The notes beneath the pieces were generated by a model. It made no database searches, was not told the DNA's origin, and worked only from the letters and a program-made list of their open reading frames with translations. From Helicobacter cetorum (lineage in GTDB: Bacteria > Campylobacterota > Campylobacteria > Campylobacterales > BB28), in assembly GCA_022729755.1 (NCBI GenBank), contig DZAZ01000002.1:1926-65925 (forward strand): a stretch of 64,000 nt of DNA, read 5' to 3'. Position 1 is the first letter of the stretch, and each line of letters opens with the position of its first letter. The translations under genes were made by a program, and so were the position numbers. This document shows positions 4,275 through 40,920 of the stretch, piece after piece.

Positions 4275-5229
4275 AATTAATACTCTTTAAATATCCCCTA
4301 ACTTTAGGTGGAATTTTTTTAATCCTACACTCTTCTTTAAACTTTTTTTCAAGTTTGATTTTATAATAAGGTGCAATGTAAATTTTATCTTCAGTATATG
4401 AAATAGCGATATTTCCCGAAATTACACAATCTTTTGTTTTTATTATTTCATCTCTTTGAGCTTTTGACATTAATAAACCTAACTTTTTTAATATTTTATC
4501 GATATTTCGGATATTTTTAATTTCATCATTTAAATTTTTAAGTATAAAAAACTCTTCTTGATTTAATAAAATACTATCTTCATTTAAAAGTTTTTCATCA
4601 ATTTCAAGATAATTAAAACTTTTTTTTATGCCACTTTCAAACTCTTTAATCAATTGATTTGCAAACTTATCTCTAAAATAATTTCTTTTATATTTTGTAT
4701 CAAAATTTGAAAAATCTATAAAATATTTTATATTTTTTTTATCTAAAAAATTTTTTAATTCATCTTTTGAAAACTCTAATAAAGGTCTTAAAATAGTGTA
4801 ATTTTCTTTTTTTACAATAGCTTTTAAACCCAAAAGTTCAACTAAACCAGCACCTTTACTTAATTGCATCAAAAACCATTCAAATTTATCATTTAATTGA
4901 TGTGCCATTAAAAGAGTTTGATAGCTATTTTGTTTAATTATCTCTTCAAAAAATTCATATCTAATTTTTCTTGCATTTGCTTCAAAGTTATTAAAATTAC
5001 AATTAACATCTTTTATAAAAATTTTTTTATTAAATTTTTGAGCTAACTCTCTCGCATAATTCAACTCATTAATAGCCTCTTTTCTTAGATTATAATTAAC
5101 TATTGCAATATCAAAATTTATGCTATTTTCAATTAACATAAAAAATAGAGCAGTTGAATCAAGCCCACTTGAAAATGCTAATAAATTTTTTTTGTTTTTT
5201 AAAAAATCGGTATAATTTTTGCTTAACAT
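4264..5229 (-). CDS. tilS: tRNA(Ile)-lysidine synthase
   Basis: PP-loop motif LAFSSGLDSTAL near the N-terminus. Size 321 aa. Convergent with nusA with an 11-nt overlap. Confidence 0.8.
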   Translation of the reverse strand: MLSKNYTDFLKNKKNLLAFSSGLDSTALFFMLIENSINFDIAIVNYNLRKEAINELNYARELAQKFNKKIFIKDVNCNFNNFEANARKIRYEFFEEIIKQNSYQTLLMAHQLNDKFEWFLMQLSKGAGLVELLGLKAIVKKENYTILRPLLEFSKDELKNFLDKKNIKYFIDFSNFDTKYKRNYFRDKFANQLIKEFESGIKKSFNYLEIDEKLLNEDSILLNQEEFFILKNLNDEIKNIRNIDKILKKLGLLMSKAQRDEIIKTKDCVISGNIAISYTEDKIYIAPYYKIKLEKKFKEECRIKKIPPKVRGYLKSINFIP

Positions 5230-5409
5230 CGCCTGAACCTAAATAATATTTTTTTAGATATAGTAGTTTAATTTTTATTAAAAAGTGTAATTTTTTGATA
5301 AAAATTATAAAAACTTATGAATATAGTCGGTATAATTCCAACTTTTAAGTAAGTTACATTTTAATTACAATTATGCTACAATATATCGCAAATTTTTAAA
5401 GGAGAGTTA

Positions 5410-6591
5410 ATGAAGTTAGTAAAGCTTAGTTTAGCAACAATTTTAGGTCTTGGAGTGGTTAGTACTTTAAGTGCAAATACACTTGCAGAGGCACTTTCAA
5501 GTGGAAAGACAGCTGGTAAGGCAACAATTTGGTATCAAACAAATGACAATGCTGATTTATTTGATCAAGCAAGTTCAATGGGAGATGCAGGTCTTGAGTT
5601 AGGTTATGTAACTGGAGATTATAATGGTTTAGGATTTGGTGTAACTGCTTATGCACTTGATTCTCTTAATTTACACGATAGTATAGTAAGTGCAACTCCA
5701 CACGGTGCATTAGGTGTTAATAATACTGATACTTGGCTTGGTGAAGCATATTTTACATATAAAATTGCTAACACTTCAGTTAAAGTTGGTAGACAAAATT
5801 TAGCTACTCCATTTGCAAATTCTGATACTTGGGCAGTTCATCCAAATAACTTTGAAGCTGTTGTAGTTATTAATACAGACTTACCTGATACGACTTTAAT
5901 CGGTGCATTTGTAAATAAAGAAAGAACAAGAACTTCTAGCACATTTGGTGATTTCTATACTGATGATGGTGCTTGGATGTTAGCAGCAATTTACAATGGT
6001 GTAAAAGATACTCCAATGAAAATTTTTGCATATGATGTTGTTGATGTTGCACAAGCAGTTTATGCTGATGTTTCTACAAATGTAAATGTTTTAGACGGCG
6101 TAACAGTGGCTGGACAATATTTATCAATGATGCCTGATGCAGCTGGTTTAGATGATACTCACGGTTTTGGTGCAAAAGCATCTACAAAAGTTTCTGGTGT
6201 TAATGTAACTGGAGCAATCTCTTATACAAGTGATGGTGCATTACCCGTTGCAAATGCTGGTGATAAAATGACTAAAACTCCAATTTTCACAACAACAATT
6301 ACAGCTGATGGTGATATCTCTTCTGCTCCTGATACAATGGGATATTTACTTTCTGGTGAAATGGAAGTTGCAAAAGATTTAACAACTACATTAACTTGGG
6401 GATTTTATGACCACGGCGAAAAATCATATGATGATGAGTCTTTAGCAGTTGAATTAGTTTCAATGTATAAAGGAATTCAAAATTTAGCACTATTTGGTGG
6501 TTATTTCTTTACTGACCAAGCAGCTGGTGTGTATTATGATAACACAGACGAAGTTCACGTTGTAAGACTTTGGGGAAGATATAGTTTCTAA
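5410..6591 (+). CDS. Outer-membrane porin (Campylobacter MOMP/OprD-like beta-barrel)
   Basis: Signal peptide (MKLVKLSLATILGLGVVSTLSA), alternating beta-strand pattern and a C-terminal aromatic residue (RYSF). GC and codon usage look like a highly expressed gene. Confidence 0.6.
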   Translation: MKLVKLSLATILGLGVVSTLSANTLAEALSSGKTAGKATIWYQTNDNADLFDQASSMGDAGLELGYVTGDYNGLGFGVTAYALDSLNLHDSIVSATPHGALGVNNTDTWLGEAYFTYKIANTSVKVGRQNLATPFANSDTWAVHPNNFEAVVVINTDLPDTTLIGAFVNKERTRTSSTFGDFYTDDGAWMLAAIYNGVKDTPMKIFAYDVVDVAQAVYADVSTNVNVLDGVTVAGQYLSMMPDAAGLDDTHGFGAKASTKVSGVNVTGAISYTSDGALPVANAGDKMTKTPIFTTTITADGDISSAPDTMGYLLSGEMEVAKDLTTTLTWGFYDHGEKSYDDESLAVELVSMYKGIQNLALFGGYFFTDQAAGVYYDNTDEVHVVRLWGRYSF

Positions 6592-6607
6592 GAAGAGTTC
6601 TTCTTAG
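6588..6607. terminator. Bidirectional hairpin between the convergent porin and rimO genes
   Basis: ctaagaaga-gt-tcttcttag is a 9-bp perfect palindrome (8-bp stem with a 4-nt loop once the closing pair opens). It spans both stop codons in a 12-nt intergenic gap. Confidence 0.4.
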
Positions 6608-7911
6608 TTCTCTATCCTACCTATTAATTTATCTTCCACTACTTCTGTTATCGTTGCTTTGTAAATTCTACCGTATTTTATATCTTCAACTTCACTATCA
6701 TTGATTAAAATTTCACCATCAATCTCTGGTGCCCAAGATAATTTTTTTGCACTTAATAAATATTCGTGTTCATCGCTTTCTCCATCAATCACAACTTCAA
6801 AAGTTTTACCAATTTCGCTTTGTAATTTCTCTTCATTTATCTCTTTTATTATTTGACTTAAAATATTAACTCGTCTTTCAATCTCTTTTGGTGAAATTTT
6901 CTCATCCATCTCATAAGCTAATGTTCCCTCTTCATCTGAATAAGCAAAGATATTCACTCTATCAAATTTAAACTCTCTTAAAAATTCACAAACTCTCTGA
7001 AAATCTTCTTCACTCTCTTTTGGATGTCCCACGATTATGCTCGTTCTAATAAAGCTATCTTTTACTTTTTTTATCTCATTTAAAAGCTCTTTTAATTTAA
7101 CCTCGCCCATTCCTCGCTTCATAATTTTCAGCATATTATCGCTGATATGCTGAATTGGAATATCAAAATAGTTGTGAAAAACTTTTGAGTTTTCAATCTT
7201 TTTAATCAAATCGCTCGAAGTTGTACTTGGATAAAGATATAAAATTCTAGCACTCTTTACTCCTTCAATATTTTCAACTTCATTAATTAATTTTATAAGT
7301 CCATCTTTTTCATCTTTATCTCTTAAATATGAACTACTATCTTGAGAAATAAAACTAAAATCATAAAACCCTTTACTTACAAGCTTTTTAACCTCGTTTA
7401 CAATACTCTCAAGACTTCTACTTTGAAGTTTTCCTCTAAAGTTTGGAATTGCACAAAAACTACATTTTTGATTGCAACCTTCAGCAATTTTAATATATGA
7501 GTGATAGTTTGAGCCAGTAATTATTCGCTCCTCATTGTCAATTAAAAAAACTTGCTCTGAAAAAAGCGATTTTTTCTCATTAATTAACTCATTAATCTTT
7601 TCATAATCCCCAACTCCAGTGAAAATATCAACTTCAATAAGCTCTTTTGCAAGTTCATTTTTATATCGCTCACTAAGGCATCCACTCATCACTAAAATTG
7701 CGCCATCTTTTCGCTCTTCGTGAAGATTAAAAATAGTGTTTAAACTCTCTTGCTTCGCACTCTCAATAAATCCACAAGTATTCACAATAATAACATCAGC
7801 TTCATTCACTTCATTTGTTAATTCATAATCACTTAATTTTGCAAGCATAACTTCACTATCAACTAAATTTTTAGTACAACCAAGTGATACTAAATGTAAC
7901 TTTTTACTCAT
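6604..7911 (-). CDS. rimO: Ribosomal protein S12 methylthiotransferase
   Basis: [13 protein letters not shown]-terminal motif, radical-SAM CNQKCSFC and a C-terminal TRAM region. Length 435 aa. Confidence 0.85.
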
Positions 7912-8042
7912 TTAAACTTCTTCCTTTAATAAATTTTTAAAAAAGATTATATCTAAAAAAAAATTATTTTTTTAATGAAAATTGTATCGTTTAAGTGGTA
8001 TCATCATAACAAAAGAAGTTTATAAAAAATAGAGAAGAGTAG

Positions 8043-35853: not shown

Positions 35854-37302
35854 TTACAAAGATGTAACCCCAACTCTTGAAATGTGATAAGCAATATTAT
35901 GTTGAATATCATTAACTAACTCTTTTCTTGCTCTAAATAGCAACTTAAGATTCTCAAGTGTTTTAGGATTTAATCCAAATATATGTCTTAAACTAAGCAA
36001 TAAAATATAATTTTGACTTTCATAATTAAATGAGAATCCACTTTTATAAAAATTATCTAACTTTTTTATACACTGTTTATCAAATGGAACTAAATAACCA
36101 AATATTAACCTTGATTTTTTAAATTTATTATTTGAATAGTCACAATATGGAGTGAATTCTATTAAAATTGGTTTGATGGAATCTAAAGTATCTTGTTTTG
36201 TTTTATTTTTAATTCTTTCATTATATTCATCTTTAGCTTCATTTTGTTGTTTTTCAAGTTCACTTTTATATTTTGAATTATAATCATAAATTTCATCTTC
36301 AAAAATTTTTTTATAATCATCATATCCACAAACATTTTCGTTTAATTTATCACAAATATTTAAATAACTCTCAAAACAAAATATATTTCCTGGATACATT
36401 TTTTTATTACTAGATAATGGAATCTCAAACAAAAGTTTGCTATTAACAATATATGTGTTTTCATTATTTTTAACTTGTAAATCTAAATTTTTTAAAGTGT
36501 TATTTGTAGTTTCATTAGAGTTTGAATCTTCAACACTTTTTTCTATTGTGTCTTGAAGTACCATATTTAAAGCTGTATATAAACCTTTTCTTTTCTCTTC
36601 TTTGTTTGGAGATTGATTAGTTCCGACTATTGACTTAATAGCTCCATTTAATAAATCTCGATTTTTATCTTGATTCTCTATATCTAAAAACATATCAAAT
36701 ACTTTTGCACTTGATTTTTGTATTTGGCTCTCCCACTCTCTTAATAGATTGAAATAGTCTAAATTTTGATTTAAAGAATTTTTTATATCGTTAATTAAAT
36801 AATTGATAGATTTATTGCAAAAAATATTAAAATGGTGTTGATAATCAGCTAAAGTTAATTCTTTTTTATTTATACACCATTTCATTTGTTCAAATTTTTT
36901 TATAATGTTAATTTCATTTTTTTTATAATCATTTTTATCTAAAGTAACTATTGGATAAAATTTATATTTTCTCTCTTTTAATTTATCAATTAAAACATTT
37001 CTCAGTTCATTATGTTTTGACCATATTATTAATATAAATGCTCCATTATCCTCAGATAAATTTCTTGTTATTGATGAGTATATAGGAGAAATCGTACTTT
37101 TGTTAGAACTACTAATTTTATCATCTAATGTTAAATCAGCAAAAATATACCTAACATTGGTGAATTTATTTTTCTTTTTACTCGTTTTAAAGTTAATGTA
37201 AATACTTTGAATACCAATATCATCTAATGCTTCTCTTAAATTTTGTATTTCTTCAGGTTTATCATCAAAAATTAAAACTTTTGTATTATTTACACTATTC
37301 AC
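35854..37302 (-). CDS. Receiver (REC)-like domain protein with an uncharacterised ~350-aa C-terminal region; third gene of the dcm operon
   Basis: The N-terminus reads KVLIFDD (D13-D14)...YIFADLTL (D56)...LIIWS (S95)...K, which follows the CheY-like acidic pocket, phospho-acceptor, Ser/Thr and Lys order. The rest has no motif I recognise. The start overlaps the upstream stop (ATGA at 37299-37302). Confidence 0.45.
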   Translation of the reverse strand: MNSVNNTKVLIFDDKPEEIQNLREALDDIGIQSIYINFKTSKKKNKFTNVRYIFADLTLDDKISSSNKSTISPIYSSITRNLSEDNGAFILIIWSKHNELRNVLIDKLKERKYKFYPIVTLDKNDYKKNEINIIKKFEQMKWCINKKELTLADYQHHFNIFCNKSINYLINDIKNSLNQNLDYFNLLREWESQIQKSSAKVFDMFLDIENQDKNRDLLNGAIKSIVGTNQSPNKEEKRKGLYTALNMVLQDTIEKSVEDSNSNETTNNTLKNLDLQVKNNENTYIVNSKLLFEIPLSSNKKMYPGNIFCFESYLNICDKLNENVCGYDDYKKIFEDEIYDYNSKYKSELEKQQNEAKDEYNERIKNKTKQDTLDSIKPILIEFTPYCDYSNNKFKKSRLIFGYLVPFDKQCIKKLDNFYKSGFSFNYESQNYILLLSLRHIFGLNPKTLENLKLLFRARKELVNDIQHNIAYHISRVGVTSL

Positions 37303-39476
37303 TTTAATTCTCCTTTTTTAAATTCTAAAGCTATTGTCGCACCGTCAATAAAATCTTCTTCTAAATTCAAGTTTTTTATTTTATATTCTTTATTAGTAAT
37401 AATTTTTAAAGCACCTAAATTTTGCTTCATTATTTCATTAGAGAAGTACAAACCAAGACCTTTTCCAAATTCATTTTTTGTAGTTTTAAATGGTAATTTT
37501 GCAATATCTTCTGATATGGAAAATCCTAATCCATTGTCAGCTATTATTAATTCTATTGAATTTTCTTTTTCAAAAACATCTATTAAAATTTTTCTATCTT
37601 TAATCATCTTTTTATAATCTAGCCAATAAATTGAATTATCAAACAAATTCATTAAAACTTGATTAGTCAATTTAGGAAAACAATTAATATAAAATTTTTT
37701 ATCATTTGTTTTATCAATTAATTTTATTTTATGGTCTTCAAATCTTGCTTCAAAATATATCATACACATTTCTATTAACTCATTAACTAATGTATTTTTT
37801 TGTTTATCATTTTCTAAAAATTTTGCAACTCCTTCAATTATAGTTGATAATGAAATAGCTATTTTTTCTATATCATCAAAATTTTTACTTTTAATAGTTT
37901 TGTTTAAAGAGTGAACTATTTTTTCAATTTCGTGTATTACTAAACTATATGCAAGTCCTGCACCTGAACTTTTCAATACAATATCTTTCATACTATTATA
38001 ATTTTCTTCTACTTTTTCAATAAGATGGATAACTTCATCTCTCTTTTTTTCATCAGGAATATATTTTGTAAGCTTTTCCTTACTCTCTTCTATAATTGCT
38101 AATGTATCTCTATCACTATCTTGTTCTTTTGCATATTGTGTTCTAAATTTATCTTTATCTTCATTTTTTAAAAAATTTACTTTATTTATGATATTAATTA
38201 CTATATCTCTAAAGTTATAATAAATTTTATCTTCAATAAATCCTTCACGATTTGTCTTTTCAACTAATCCACTGCTGTTTTTCCCATCTAAAAATACAGA
38301 TGATATAATATTTCTATTTCCTATCTTTGAAGTTGGAGCGTTGATTCTACTTGCATCCATTCCAAGCCAATCATTGCCTTCCTCTCCATAATCATAAATT
38401 CTCATTCCATCTCTATATACTCTTACACCACCATTTTCTTTAACAAAACTTTTCAAACCACTTCTATCAGATATGTTACTTAAATCTAATGTAGTTTTAT
38501 CAAAATCAAATATGTAACCTTTTATATCTATCTCTTTAATACCATCAAATGGTATATCTTCAAATTTATCTCTATTTTTTTCTTGTTTCTCTTTTTCTAT
38601 CTCTCTTCTAATAAAGGGATTTTTTGCTATATATTCATCAACTTCTGTAACTTCTCTAGCTTCTGCTCTTTCCATATACCTATATGGTTGAAATTTATAT
38701 TTAAAGTTTGTAACTTTACTTATTTTATTTCCATTCTCATCTTCAACTTCACTTGCCTTACATTCAAAATACCATAAAGCATATCTTTTTAAAGTCTCTA
38801 ATGATAATAATCCCTCTTTCCAATCTTCTAAATTTGTCTCTATCTCTATATTAAAATTATCTCTTGTTTCAAATGGAGAAGTTAAAGCAAAAATAGAGCG
38901 ATATAACTCTCTAAAGTCTCGTTTACTCCACTCTTTTCTTAAATTTGTAACTCTAATATATGTACCTTTCTCTTCACCAATAAAGAAAGAGGCTTTTCTC
39001 TCTTTTAGAGTAATTAGTTTATCTGATAAATACTCATCACCACTAAATTCACTCCAATCAATGCTTAAAACTACCTCTTTTGAGTTGGCTTTTTTTGTAA
39101 TTAACTCTATCTTATTTCCAAGTTTATGTACACCAAATCTACCAATTCCCTTTTCGCCGATTGGTCTTCTATTACAATCACTTATAAAGTTTTCACTATT
39201 TTTTTCCTCTTTATTATTAGTTCCAGGTTCCATCCAAATATTATTGATAATATCTATATCCATTCCAAAACCATCATCAATAATAATTATTTCTCCATTA
39301 GTTAAGTTATCAATATCATTCATTATAACTTTTACATTTCTTGCACAAGCATCATAAGAGTTTTTGATAATTTCTGAAAGTGCAATTTTTTCATTTCTAA
39401 TAAGTTGGTCACCAAGTTGTAAAAGCAATCTTGCTTTTGGTTTAAATGGTGTGGTAACTTCTTTGTACTCTAACAT
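37299..39476 (-). CDS. Dual Bergerat-fold ATPase: N-terminal MORC/Hsp90-like GHKL module plus C-terminal histidine-kinase core (DHp + CA)
   Basis: N-terminal motifs are ALSEIIKNSYDA (E35, N39, D42), IIIIDDGFGM (D68-G-x-G71) and GEKGIGRFG (~107-115). C-terminal motifs are the H-box VIHEIEKIVHSL (His515, codon 37932-37934), N-box LMNLFDNSIYW, G1 ADNGLGF and G2 GKGLGL. The start overlaps the dcm stop. Confidence 0.65.
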   Translation of the reverse strand: MLEYKEVTTPFKPKARLLLQLGDQLIRNEKIALSEIIKNSYDACARNVKVIMNDIDNLTNGEIIIIDDGFGMDIDIINNIWMEPGTNNKEEKNSENFISDCNRRPIGEKGIGRFGVHKLGNKIELITKKANSKEVVLSIDWSEFSGDEYLSDKLITLKERKASFFIGEEKGTYIRVTNLRKEWSKRDFRELYRSIFALTSPFETRDNFNIEIETNLEDWKEGLLSLETLKRYALWYFECKASEVEDENGNKISKVTNFKYKFQPYRYMERAEAREVTEVDEYIAKNPFIRREIEKEKQEKNRDKFEDIPFDGIKEIDIKGYIFDFDKTTLDLSNISDRSGLKSFVKENGGVRVYRDGMRIYDYGEEGNDWLGMDASRINAPTSKIGNRNIISSVFLDGKNSSGLVEKTNREGFIEDKIYYNFRDIVINIINKVNFLKNEDKDKFRTQYAKEQDSDRDTLAIIEESKEKLTKYIPDEKKRDEVIHLIEKVEENYNSMKDIVLKSSGAGLAYSLVIHEIEKIVHSLNKTIKSKNFDDIEKIAISLSTIIEGVAKFLENDKQKNTLVNELIEMCMIYFEARFEDHKIKLIDKTNDKKFYINCFPKLTNQVLMNLFDNSIYWLDYKKMIKDRKILIDVFEKENSIELIIADNGLGFSISEDIAKLPFKTTKNEFGKGLGLYFSNEIMKQNLGALKIITNKEYKIKNLNLEEDFIDGATIALEFKKGELK

Positions 39477-40708
39477 AACATTTCCTTTATCTTCTCCCCT
39501 ATTTTTTCAGCCATAAGAGGAGGTACAGCATTTCCTATTTGTTTAAATATAAAAGTTCTAGGTCCTTCAAAATAGAAGTCATCAGGAAAAGATTGAACTC
39601 TTGAAGCCTCTCTAATTGAGAGTGAGCGGAGTTGATTAATGTCAGGATGAATGTAGTAGTGTCCATCCATTGCAATGTGTGCTAACATCGTATGAGTTGC
39701 CTCTAAATCAGCTTTTACAACATTAAAACGATTTACAAAAGTTTCTATATTTTTATGCTTTCTTAATCTTTCTGGTAACTCATCATATCTTAATCTCTTT
39801 TTTTTTCTATTCCATAACTCTATCGCTATTTCATAAATTTTTCTATCATTATCATTGTGCGGTCTAGTTTCGTGTTGAGTTAAAATATTAAAATCTTTTT
39901 CTCTAATTTTACTAAAGATTAAATACTCATTTGAATTTTTTTTATATCTATTTTTACCCTCTATTTTACTGCCTGGTTCAACTTCTGGTAAATCATTTAG
40001 TATTTTTTCTACTTTTGTATCTTTTGGTAAATTAACTTTTTCAAAAGTTGGATAACTTAATTTTAACTCTTTTTTCCAACCAATAATAATAACTCTCTTT
40101 CTATTTTGTAACACTCCAAAATCAAAAGAGTTTAAAATTTTAAACTCAAATTCATATCCAACTTCTCTTATCTCTTTTTGTAAATCTTCAAAATATTTTC
40201 CATTTGAAGCACTCAAAAGTCCTGGTACATTTTCAAATACAAACATTTTAGGTTTAAAATCTCTTAAAAATTTTACATAGTGTTTATATAAAGTATTTCG
40301 CTCATCATTAACAACTCTATCTTTCATTCTAGCTCTACCAATTACAGAGTAAGCTTGACAAGGAGGACCACCTATGATTACATCTACTTTTTTACTTATC
40401 TCTTTTAAATTTTTATCTATTTTATTTTTTATCTCTCCATAATTACTATTTGATATAAATTCATTAATAACTAAATCTTTATTACTAAATACATTGTTTA
40501 AAAACTCTTCTCTATCTATCTTTTTTTCTAAGTAATTGTGATATGTTTTTAATTTTTTTTGTTTTTTTAATTCCCAGTAAGCTGTTCTTGTTGAGAGTGT
40601 GTCACAAGCATATTTATCTGCTTCTATGTGTCCAATAAAAGTAGCTCCATTTCGCCAAAAGCCTTCACTTAGTCCTCCAGCACCTGAAAAAAGGTCTAAA
40701 ACAACCAT
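39470..40708 (-). CDS. dcm: DNA (cytosine-5)-methyltransferase
   Basis: Motif I DLFSGAGGLSEGF, motif IV GGPPCQAYS, motif VI ENVPGL, motif VIII QNRKRVIIIG and motif X QIGNAVPP. Confidence 0.9.
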   Translation of the reverse strand: MVVLDLFSGAGGLSEGFWRNGATFIGHIEADKYACDTLSTRTAYWELKKQKKLKTYHNYLEKKIDREEFLNNVFSNKDLVINEFISNSNYGEIKNKIDKNLKEISKKVDVIIGGPPCQAYSVIGRARMKDRVVNDERNTLYKHYVKFLRDFKPKMFVFENVPGLLSASNGKYFEDLQKEIREVGYEFEFKILNSFDFGVLQNRKRVIIIGWKKELKLSYPTFEKVNLPKDTKVEKILNDLPEVEPGSKIEGKNRYKKNSNEYLIFSKIREKDFNILTQHETRPHNDNDRKIYEIAIELWNRKKKRLRYDELPERLRKHKNIETFVNRFNVVKADLEATHTMLAHIAMDGHYYIHPDINQLRSLSIREASRVQSFPDDFYFEGPRTFIFKQIGNAVPPLMAEKIGEKIKEMLC

Positions 40709-40871
40709 TTTTTGCTCCTAAAATGTCAAGTTCATATCTATAATTAGAAAAATTATTTGAACTTCCACTGAAAGTTTTAATATTAATTTCAAAAATTTTA
40801 TTACCTTTATTGTACCATATTTTCATAGCTTCCATCGAAATTTTCTTTTACTGAAAGTGATAAAATTTTTA

Positions 40872-40887
40872 TGGAATGTTTTTTGCT
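40872..40887 (+). promoter_or_regulatory. Sigma54 (RpoN)-type promoter upstream of fliK-flgD-flgE-like
   Basis: TGGAAT-GTTTT-TTGCT has the exact -24 GG / -12 GC spacing of TGGCAC-N5-TTGCW. It lies 35 nt upstream of the fliK ATG. Confidence 0.55.
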
Positions 40888-40920
40888 TTTTAGAAATTAA
40901 ACTTTCTAAAAGGTCATATT

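Follow-up and report, generated by a model that had tools for sequence, protein, structure and literature searches.

We report on three overlapping minus-strand genes of Helicobacter cetorum, which lie in a 64-kb stretch of contig DZAZ01000002.1 (assembly GCA_022729755.1; the whole stretch is called the window below), and which encode a Dcm-type DNA cytosine methylase, a 725-residue kinase-like protein with two GHKL modules, and a 482-residue protein with a receiver-like N-terminus. Our preferred reading, to which we assign a probability of about 0.5, is that this trio may form a mobile restriction-modification-like or addiction module whose 'R' arm would be gated by a His-Asp phosphorelay. 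By its gene order and domain content the trio is a member of an architecture that has already been predicted in silico, and it falls outside the Pfam models of that architecture.

Domain structure of the kinase-like protein

A preliminary description of this locus, made from the sequence before any database search, had proposed that the 725-residue protein joins a MORC/Hsp90-type GHKL ATPase to a full histidine-kinase core containing H515, and Pfam matches, invariant residues and an AlphaFold2 model searched with Foldseek all bear this out. Pfam detects HATPase_c_3 (PF13589) at residues 31–148 (E = 1e-16) and HATPase_c (PF02518) at residues 605–692 (E = 4e-11). Across an alignment of 34 homologs, which are 39–71% identical to the window protein, H515 is invariant and the following E516 is at least 90% conserved. 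Also invariant are N610, D613 and N614 of the N box, D647xGxG651 of the G1 box and G671xGxGL676 of the G2 box, together with E35, N39, D67xGxG71 and G107-G112 of the N-terminal GHKL domain.

The AlphaFold2 model (mean predicted local distance difference test score, pLDDT, 78.5) comprises a GHKL domain, an alpha/beta middle region, long helices, a hairpin bearing H515 and a catalytic (CA) domain, the two helices of the DHp-type hairpin spanning residues 507–528 and 533–553. Foldseek matches the C-terminal ∼250 residues to DHp+CA cores, with ZraS (9jfj) at E = 7e-10 and HK853, KinB and YycG at target template-modelling (TM) scores of 0.53–0.59. For the N-terminal 440–510 residues the matches are to ATPase modules, those of SMCHD1 (1e-9), Hsp90 and DNA-bound MORC2, in alignments of 440–510 columns that cover both the GHKL domain and the middle region. 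When a profile of the kinase family is searched against PDB sequences, the DHp and CA domains of LvrB are returned (7e-12), as are Hsp90 N-domains. The kinase-like protein thus keeps all the residues for two ATPase sites and for histidine autophosphorylation.

The N-terminal part also matches two restriction-enzyme models. Residues 19–247 match the NCBIfam family of BbrUII/HgiDII restriction enzymes (NF050001) at E = 6e-24, scoring 84.6 bits where the cut-off is 550, and residues 20–141 match the PADLOC model REase_II (PDLC03419) at 1e-11.

Longer forms of the kinase-like protein (955–960 residues) were seen in Aliarcobacter butzleri (locus L001, P0033, positions 5132–8014) and in a Sulfurimonas sp. 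(L002, 5141–8017). Both carry an extra N-terminal domain of ∼230 residues, for which neither Pfam nor PDB sequences gave a match, and both are preceded by two C5 methylase genes, not one. The extension has a B3-like look, which is an impression only and unverified.

The receiver protein and its C-terminal domain

The 482-residue partner had been described as CheY-like at its N-terminus and unrecognisable in its C-terminal region, and both statements stand. D13, D14, D56 and S95 occupy receiver positions, and Foldseek gives a receiver-type fold. These four residues and K123 are invariant in 26 close homologs, as is K289. In a wider alignment of 95 members, which share 20–54% identity with the window protein, D56, W94, K123, C387, D388 and R476 are invariant, and conservation of at least 90% is found for D13 and D14 and, in the middle region, for W190, E191, D251 and N287. 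The AlphaFold2 model (pLDDT 73) has five strands, with D13/D14, D56, S95 and K123 placed after beta1, beta3, beta4 and beta5, respectively. Against the PDB, Foldseek finds the receiver domains of LvrB (1e-4), FixJ, CpxR and GacS, with E-values of only 1e-4 to 5e-2; against BFVD the best match is the phage receiver cREC, and receiver or flavodoxin-like folds are all that is returned. A family profile aligns D56 to D57 of CheY, at only 3% probability. The receiver protein keeps all the residues that phosphoryl transfer to D56 would require.

No family for the 482-residue protein was found in Pfam, NCBIfam, PADLOC or PHROG. Profile searches of PDB sequences, with the full length or with the C-terminal domain alone, gave no match to that domain; Foldseek searches of PDB and BFVD with the full model gave nothing beyond the receiver domain; and a word-indexed search for other architectures, made with a profile of the C-terminal domain, returned receiver-fused relatives only. 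Within a set of 49 diverse sequences, C387 and G478 of the C-terminal domain are invariant, and G305, D388, G402 and R476 are at least 90% conserved. C387 and D388 (36139–36144) belong to the motif E[VI][ST]PxCDxAQxK, and the terminal helix of the protein ends in RxG.

The C-terminal domain is homologous to the C-terminus of 340–357-residue proteins of Campylobacter conjugative plasmids and Enterobacter plasmids (hhalign 95%, E = 2.8e-8). One of these plasmid proteins is annotated 'response regulator', and an Enterobacter example, scanned as an isolated domain, clears the PF00072 threshold. A search of complete genomes of E. coli with an Enterobacter homolog gave no match. Each of the plasmid proteins adjoins a dual-GHKL kinase-like protein, and the Campylobacter one also adjoins dcm. 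Because it is homologous to the C-termini of plasmid response regulators, the C-terminal domain is firmly tied to receiver domains.

One such sister module lies on Campylobacter coli plasmid pCCDM224L (L089, 39771–44224), where genes for a 732-residue kinase-like protein and a 340-residue 'response regulator' are accompanied by a convergent dcm. The module is common on conjugative Campylobacter plasmids (40 other plasmid records), where it sits beside HicAB and VapD genes.

Distribution and gene order

More than 3480 of 8000 candidates scored in a database clustered at 90% are relatives of the kinase-like protein, and clustering at 50% leaves 1787 representatives of the receiver protein family (E ≤ 1e-3); of the best 150 listed, nearly all are full length. 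When one genome per species was scanned with the kinase alignment as query, the kinase-like gene was found in at least 544 species, which include many bacterial phyla as well as Nitrosopumilaceae, Cenarchaeum and Methanoregulaceae among the archaea.

Gene order was counted in the best 80 loci, taken from species representatives. In 76 of these the next gene downstream of the kinase gene, in the same orientation, is the receiver gene; three others end before any downstream gene, and the last, a tandem array (L041), has receiver-like genes nearby but none immediately after the copy that was scored. The two genes most often overlap by 4 nt. A C5 methylase gene stands directly upstream of the kinase gene at 58 loci and adjoins the pair, either upstream or just downstream, at 65; at 38 loci the gene directly upstream belongs to the same clade as the window's methylase (phmmer E < 1e-90). 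The commonest fourth gene is Vsr (37/80). The preliminary description had asked about co-conservation, and these counts show it to be tight, both between the kinase and receiver genes and between that pair and C5 methylases. Among the contexts of the loci examined are integrases, Tn7 transposition genes that have the pair as cargo, McrBC, HipA, toxin-antitoxin genes and plasmids. At loci with the window's methylase clade, the receiver protein is the fastest-evolving partner (distance 0.68–0.79).

The array mentioned above (L037/L041) lies in a metagenome-assembled genome of Cenarchaeum sp. (OY282369.1, ∼2.666–2.684 Mb) and holds at least five kinase-like paralogs in tandem, interleaved with receiver-like genes, one of which is apparently split. 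No C5 methylase was detected in 14 kb of this array.

At five loci with no adjacent methylase (L061, L065, L043, L084 and L079) the pair directly follows DUF4420 (PD-(D/E)xK)-AIPR genes, Tn7 TnsD/TnsE or an HNH gene. The DUF4420-AIPR gene pair, in L061, L065 and L043, is itself preceded by a larger uncharacterised open reading frame (ORF).

The methylase

The assignment of the first gene to the Dcm-type methylases is secure, with PF00145 matching at E = 2e-66 and TIGR00675 (dcm) at 3e-57, and with GGPPCQ, FENV and GNAVPP present in the translation. M.HaeIII is its closest PDB sequence match (5e-33). We compared the window gene (39470–40708) with the methylases of 42 other loci, and in this clade the target-recognition region (residues 225–380) is conserved like the catalytic core (mean distance 0.50 vs 0.47); all methylases of the clade may share one target sequence or have closely similar ones.

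The methylase also gives a full-length match to the PADLOC DISARM model DrmMII (PDLC02649; 1e-164). Membership of DISARM was ruled out, as no other drm gene is present and the neighbours are kinase-like, receiver-like, solute-binding-protein and flagellar genes. A defence-finder run that used the DrmMII model alone could mislabel the window's methylase.

The preliminary description had seen no recognisable restriction endonuclease, and we agree: none of the three proteins has a significant restriction-enzyme family match in Pfam, PADLOC or NCBIfam. A tblastn search of the window found no Vsr or HNH_2 homolog, and the 64 kb contain no second copy of any trio gene.

The locus

The strand and coordinates first given for the three ORFs need no change (Table 1). 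The methylase and kinase genes overlap at 39470–39476 in the 7 nt ATGTTAG, which hold the kinase ATG and the methylase TAG stop. The overlap of the kinase and receiver genes at 37299–37302 is indeed 4 nt, but its letters are GTGA (a GTG start and a TGA stop) and not ATGA as had been stated. Because of these 7-nt and 4-nt overlaps we read the three genes as one operon, with translational coupling of methylase, kinase and receiver.

The flanking genes are also as first described, with the solute-binding protein SBP_bac_8 on one side and FliK, FlgD and FlgE on the other. The SBP_bac_8 side further contains cobQ and a DUF2202 gene, and fliK, flgD and flgE are divergent from the trio. The trio had been called an AT-rich insert. 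Its G+C content (25.1%) is lower than that of the window (27.7%) and ranks 62nd lowest among 592 equal-size windows, but the difference is modest and the methylase gene is average, the values being 22.0% for the receiver gene, 25.6% for the kinase gene and 27.9% for the methylase gene.

Table 1. Features of the three-gene locus, in window coordinates.
Feature	Coordinates	Strand	Evidence
C5 DNA cytosine methyltransferase, 412 aa	39470..40708	-	PF00145, TIGR00675; motifs I FSGAGG, IV GGPPCQ, VI FENV, X GNAVPP
Soluble dual-GHKL protein (paraMORC-like ATPase + histidine-kinase core), 725 aa	37299..39476	-	Domain matches, conserved residues, AlphaFold2/Foldseek
N-terminal GHKL ATPase domain, residues ~20-200	38877..39419	-	PF13589; E35, N39, D67xGxG71, G107-G112 invariant
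Transducer-like alpha/beta middle region, residues ~201-415	38232..38876	-	Invariant NGGVRVYRDG, LxEKTNREGF; Foldseek
Long helical linker + DHp-type hairpin, residues 417-553	37818..38228	-	H515 codon 37932-37934, then E516
Histidine-kinase catalytic (CA) domain, residues 560-721	37314..37799	-	PF02518; N, G1, G2 boxes
Receiver-effector protein (putative effector), 482 aa	35854..37302	-	Conserved residues, AlphaFold2 model
Receiver-like domain, residues 1-128	36919..37302	-	D13, D14, D56 (codon 37135-37137), S95, K123
All-helical middle region, residues 129-300	36403..36918	-	Conserved residues; AlphaFold2; no sequence/structure match
C-terminal alpha/beta domain (putative effector), residues 301-482	35857..36402	-	Motifs PGN[IV]Y, E[VI][ST]PxCDxAQxK, RLxxG, D[IL]Q...RxG
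Methylase-fliK intergenic region (presumed operon promoter)	40709..40920	-	AGGAG ribosome-binding site ahead of ATG; shared divergently with fliK

Two minus-strand copies of the motif ACTTTCAGT lie 84 nt apart between the methylase gene and fliK (window 40766–40859), and GGAAG comes within a few to ∼20 bases after each copy. The pair of motifs could be an operator, or could have arisen by chance in AT-rich DNA.

A contig from another metagenome-assembled genome (CDAAWT010000161.1, GCA_973903765.1) is identical to window 35854–40708, and its public annotation divides the kinase-like gene into a 674-residue product and a separate 34-residue ORF. The 725-residue reading holds F11, Q20, G22, E35 and N39, which are invariant among homologs, so the true start probably lies upstream of the public one.

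Proposed mechanism and alternatives

In the phosphorelay-gated module that we propose, the methylase would mark the host's own DNA with 5-methylcytosine. The kinase-like protein would dimerise through its DHp bundle, comparable to the C-terminal dimerisation of Hsp90 and MutL, and its MORC/Hsp90-like N-terminal ATPase gate would close on DNA or on an invader-derived cue, an unmethylated target being the simplest guess. Closure of the gate would be passed along the long helices to the DHp domain, switching autophosphorylation of H515, from which the phosphoryl group would move to D56 of the receiver. Phosphorylation of D56 would then activate the C-terminal domain with its conserved Cys-Asp pair, which might damage the invading DNA or the cell, or restrict in some other way. 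Conflict effectors often evolve fast, and such a role would be in keeping with the receiver being the fastest-evolving partner. Detocs and VcSduA are defence precedents for this model. We advance more tentatively, as a possibility, the specific proposal that the C-terminal domain ([ST]PxCDxAQxK, terminal RxG) is a new phospho-activated effector and that the MORC-like clamp reads cytosine methylation and reports it through the His-Asp phosphorelay.

Several observations weigh against our preferred reading. About 15 of the 80 loci have no C5 methylase within 6 kb, and some of these methylase-less loci have separate nucleases (HNH, DUF4420) beside the pair, so that the pair could be an accessory sensor and not the restriction arm. 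Co-variation of the methylase target-recognition domain with regions of the kinase and receiver proteins was sought in 43 loci, and the partial correlations (0.16–0.28) include none that stands out. The receiver domain falls below Pfam thresholds, and in its AlphaFold2 model helix alpha2 is replaced by a loop. Library, PDB and Foldseek searches found nothing that identifies the putative effector as a nuclease, and a nuclease or toxic activity of the C-terminal domain is only presumptive, as neither sequence nor structure gives that domain a relative. Flanking direct repeats, tRNA genes and an integrase were looked for around the trio and not found, and composition is a weak sign of horizontal transfer into the H. 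cetorum genome. A literature search found no experimental paper on any family member. The settings of the kinase–receiver pair at loci with no adjacent methylase suggest that it can plug into different restriction-type systems.

The pair could instead be a regulatory two-component system, in which the kinase senses an intracellular cue (nucleotide levels, for example) and the receiver tunes the methylase or neighbouring restriction genes. The authors who described the architecture in 2021 speculated along these lines (PMC8011034); two-component systems mostly do regulate, and the all-helical middle region of the receiver could bind DNA. Yet the window and most loci offer only one methylase to regulate, and Pfam scans detect no helix-turn-helix or other DNA-binding family. 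The conserved polar residues C387, D388 and R476 look catalytic, unlike a DNA-reading surface, and the pair also travels alone as Tn7 or plasmid cargo. We consider a purely regulatory role unlikely and still worth keeping in mind. A distinctly unlikely alternative is an ATP-dependent two-subunit endonuclease that performs no real phosphotransfer, its kinase and receiver parts surviving as structural relics that help the subunits to dimerise and dock. The atypical receiver domain, with neither alpha2 nor a Pfam match, would fit such an enzyme, as would the resemblance of the N-terminal 230 residues to BbrUII/HgiDII (6e-24) and to REase_II PDLC03419 (1e-11); however, these restriction-family matches are far below cut-offs (84.6 vs 550 bits) and cover the GHKL domain only, and the invariance across phyla of H515, the N, G1 and G2 boxes, D56 and K123 would be difficult to account for if no phosphoryl chemistry took place.

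The pair might also serve in 5-methylcytosine damage control, aiding very-short-patch repair of the T:G mismatches left by deamination and limiting the mutational cost of the methylase. MutL of E. coli stimulates Vsr, which counts in favour of this idea. GHKL+transducer modules resemble MutL-class engines (Foldseek; Iyer et al. 2008), and Vsr, in its place as the commonest fourth gene (37/80 loci), is reported mostly immediately 3' of the receiver gene (PMC8011034). Against this, the window has no Vsr and neither do 43 of the 80 loci, and since Vsr goes with C5 methylases generally, its link to the pair may be indirect. Moreover, the His-Asp relay has no known part in repair, and the mobile-element and defence-island contexts indicate conflict; we therefore regard a repair function as very unlikely. 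That three unrelated genes are adjacent by chance deserves practically no credence, being refuted by the overlapping stop and start codons, by kinase–receiver synteny and by the methylase adjoining the pair at 65/80 loci, in distant phyla and in archaea.

If a phosphorelay does gate restriction in this module, it would be a second, independent immune use of two-component signalling, after Detocs, and the first phosphorelay tied to epigenetic self-marking, in hundreds of bacterial and archaeal species. It would also reveal the cue to which a prokaryotic MORC-like ATPase responds, a matter relevant to chromatin reading by eukaryotic MORC and SMCHD1. Neither the kinase nor the receiver protein is modelled in PADLOC v2, and a large family absent from that collection, with an effector domain of no known fold, makes a well-defined experimental target.

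Comparison with known systems

The preliminary description had held that no described system combines a methyltransferase, a kinase and a receiver-effector. This proved incorrect, as the architecture was published in 2021 by Bellieny-Rabelo, Pretorius and Moleleki (PMC8011034), who report it in 644 regions of 628 strains and predict a two-component-like system. Their kinase-like group consists of HATPase_c_3, a new DHp domain (HEF_HK, PF19191) and HATPase_c, and is 91.6% linked to a receiver-like group, Response_reg_2 (PF19192), which has no other known domain. C5 methylases are found upstream, Vsr is often downstream and most prevalent immediately 3' of the receiver gene, and type II restriction-modification domains are enriched. 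The authors proposed that the kinase-like group descends from paraMORC ATPases (Iyer et al. 2008).

The window trio shares with the module so reported HATPase_c_3, a DHp domain with a His followed by an acidic residue, and HATPase_c; a receiver-like partner with the Asp-Asp / Asp / Ser-Thr / Lys set and without any further known domain; and an upstream C5 methylase and paraMORC affinity, the order in the window being methylase, kinase, receiver. PF19191 gave no match to the window kinase, whether whole or as the DHp segment alone, and among ∼30 homologs scanned for PF19191 and PF19192 the only match was a sub-threshold one to PF19191 in a Burkholderia (B. glumae) homolog of 32% identity (13.4 bits vs a gathering score of 24.1). 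PF19192 gave no match to the window receiver or to ∼20 homologs from many phyla, in a library in which the presence of this model is unconfirmed. These misses place the window on a branch, or in a wider family, outside the published models.

For this window, then, we have one more case of an architecture already published in silico. The 2021 study (PMC8011034) contains no analysis of the C-terminal effector domain, and the parts of it consulted do not mention archaeal members. What is new here is a much wider distribution that includes archaea, a near-absolute kinase–receiver synteny, a branch missed by the published Pfam models, a conserved putative effector domain that is defined and linked to canonical plasmid response regulators, and a methylase recognition region conserved family-wide.

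Prokaryotic paraMORC/MORC ATPases occur in restriction-modification operons (Iyer, Abhiman & Aravind 2008, PMC2292703), and paraMORC3 corresponds to the Shedu type I-D protein VcSduA, a GHKL+nuclease protein of validated defence function that needs its ATPase (PMC12137116) and an example of a GHKL module of this sort controlling a defence nuclease. The kinase-like protein resembles these in its N-terminal GHKL domain with intact motifs, in the putative transducer-like domain that follows, and in its links to cytosine methylases, Vsr and nucleases. In contrast to paraMORC proteins, its GHKL domain is fused to a histidine-kinase core and not to a nuclease, there is neither a DUF4263 nor a RecB-type nuclease domain, and the putative effector resides on a separate receiver-gated protein.

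The BbrUII/HgiDII enzymes (NF050001) are homologous over the N-terminal ∼230 residues, that is the GHKL domain (E = 6e-24), whereas everything past residue ∼250 differs, the window protein having a kinase core at its C-terminus in place of the last part of those enzymes. These restriction enzymes pair with C5 methylases. No BbrUII/HgiDII sequence for a C-terminal comparison was annotated in the plasmid collection. Unlike a type II restriction-modification system, the trio has no detected cognate nuclease family, the only matches being the sub-threshold ones to the GHKL domain. With classical two-component systems it shares the His on DHp helix 1 and the N, G1 and G2 boxes.

Pgl, or BREX type 2, comprises the methylase PglX, the protein kinase PglW and the phosphatase PglZ. 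It likewise joins self-marking by DNA methylation to protein phosphorylation; it differs in its Ser/Thr kinase, alkaline-phosphatase-like protein, N6-adenine methylase and many more genes, none of which is known to be homologous to the window proteins.

Detocs, which consists of the kinase DtcA, the buffer receiver DtcB and the receiver-effector DtcC, is a validated defence system whose activity is lost in H-to-A and D-to-A mutants (bioRxiv 10.1101/2023.01.24.525353). The PADLOC Detocs models gave no match to the window proteins, and the stand-alone buffer receiver, the tetratricopeptide-repeat (TPR) sensor and the PNP nucleosidase effector of Detocs have no counterpart in the trio. What the two have in common is a soluble histidine kinase and a receiver protein with an effector output (predicted in the case of the window) in place of a DNA-binding domain. 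The trio would differ from Detocs in sensing through a GHKL/MORC-like ATPase and in having a DNA methylase in its operon, which implies self-marking over pure abortive infection.

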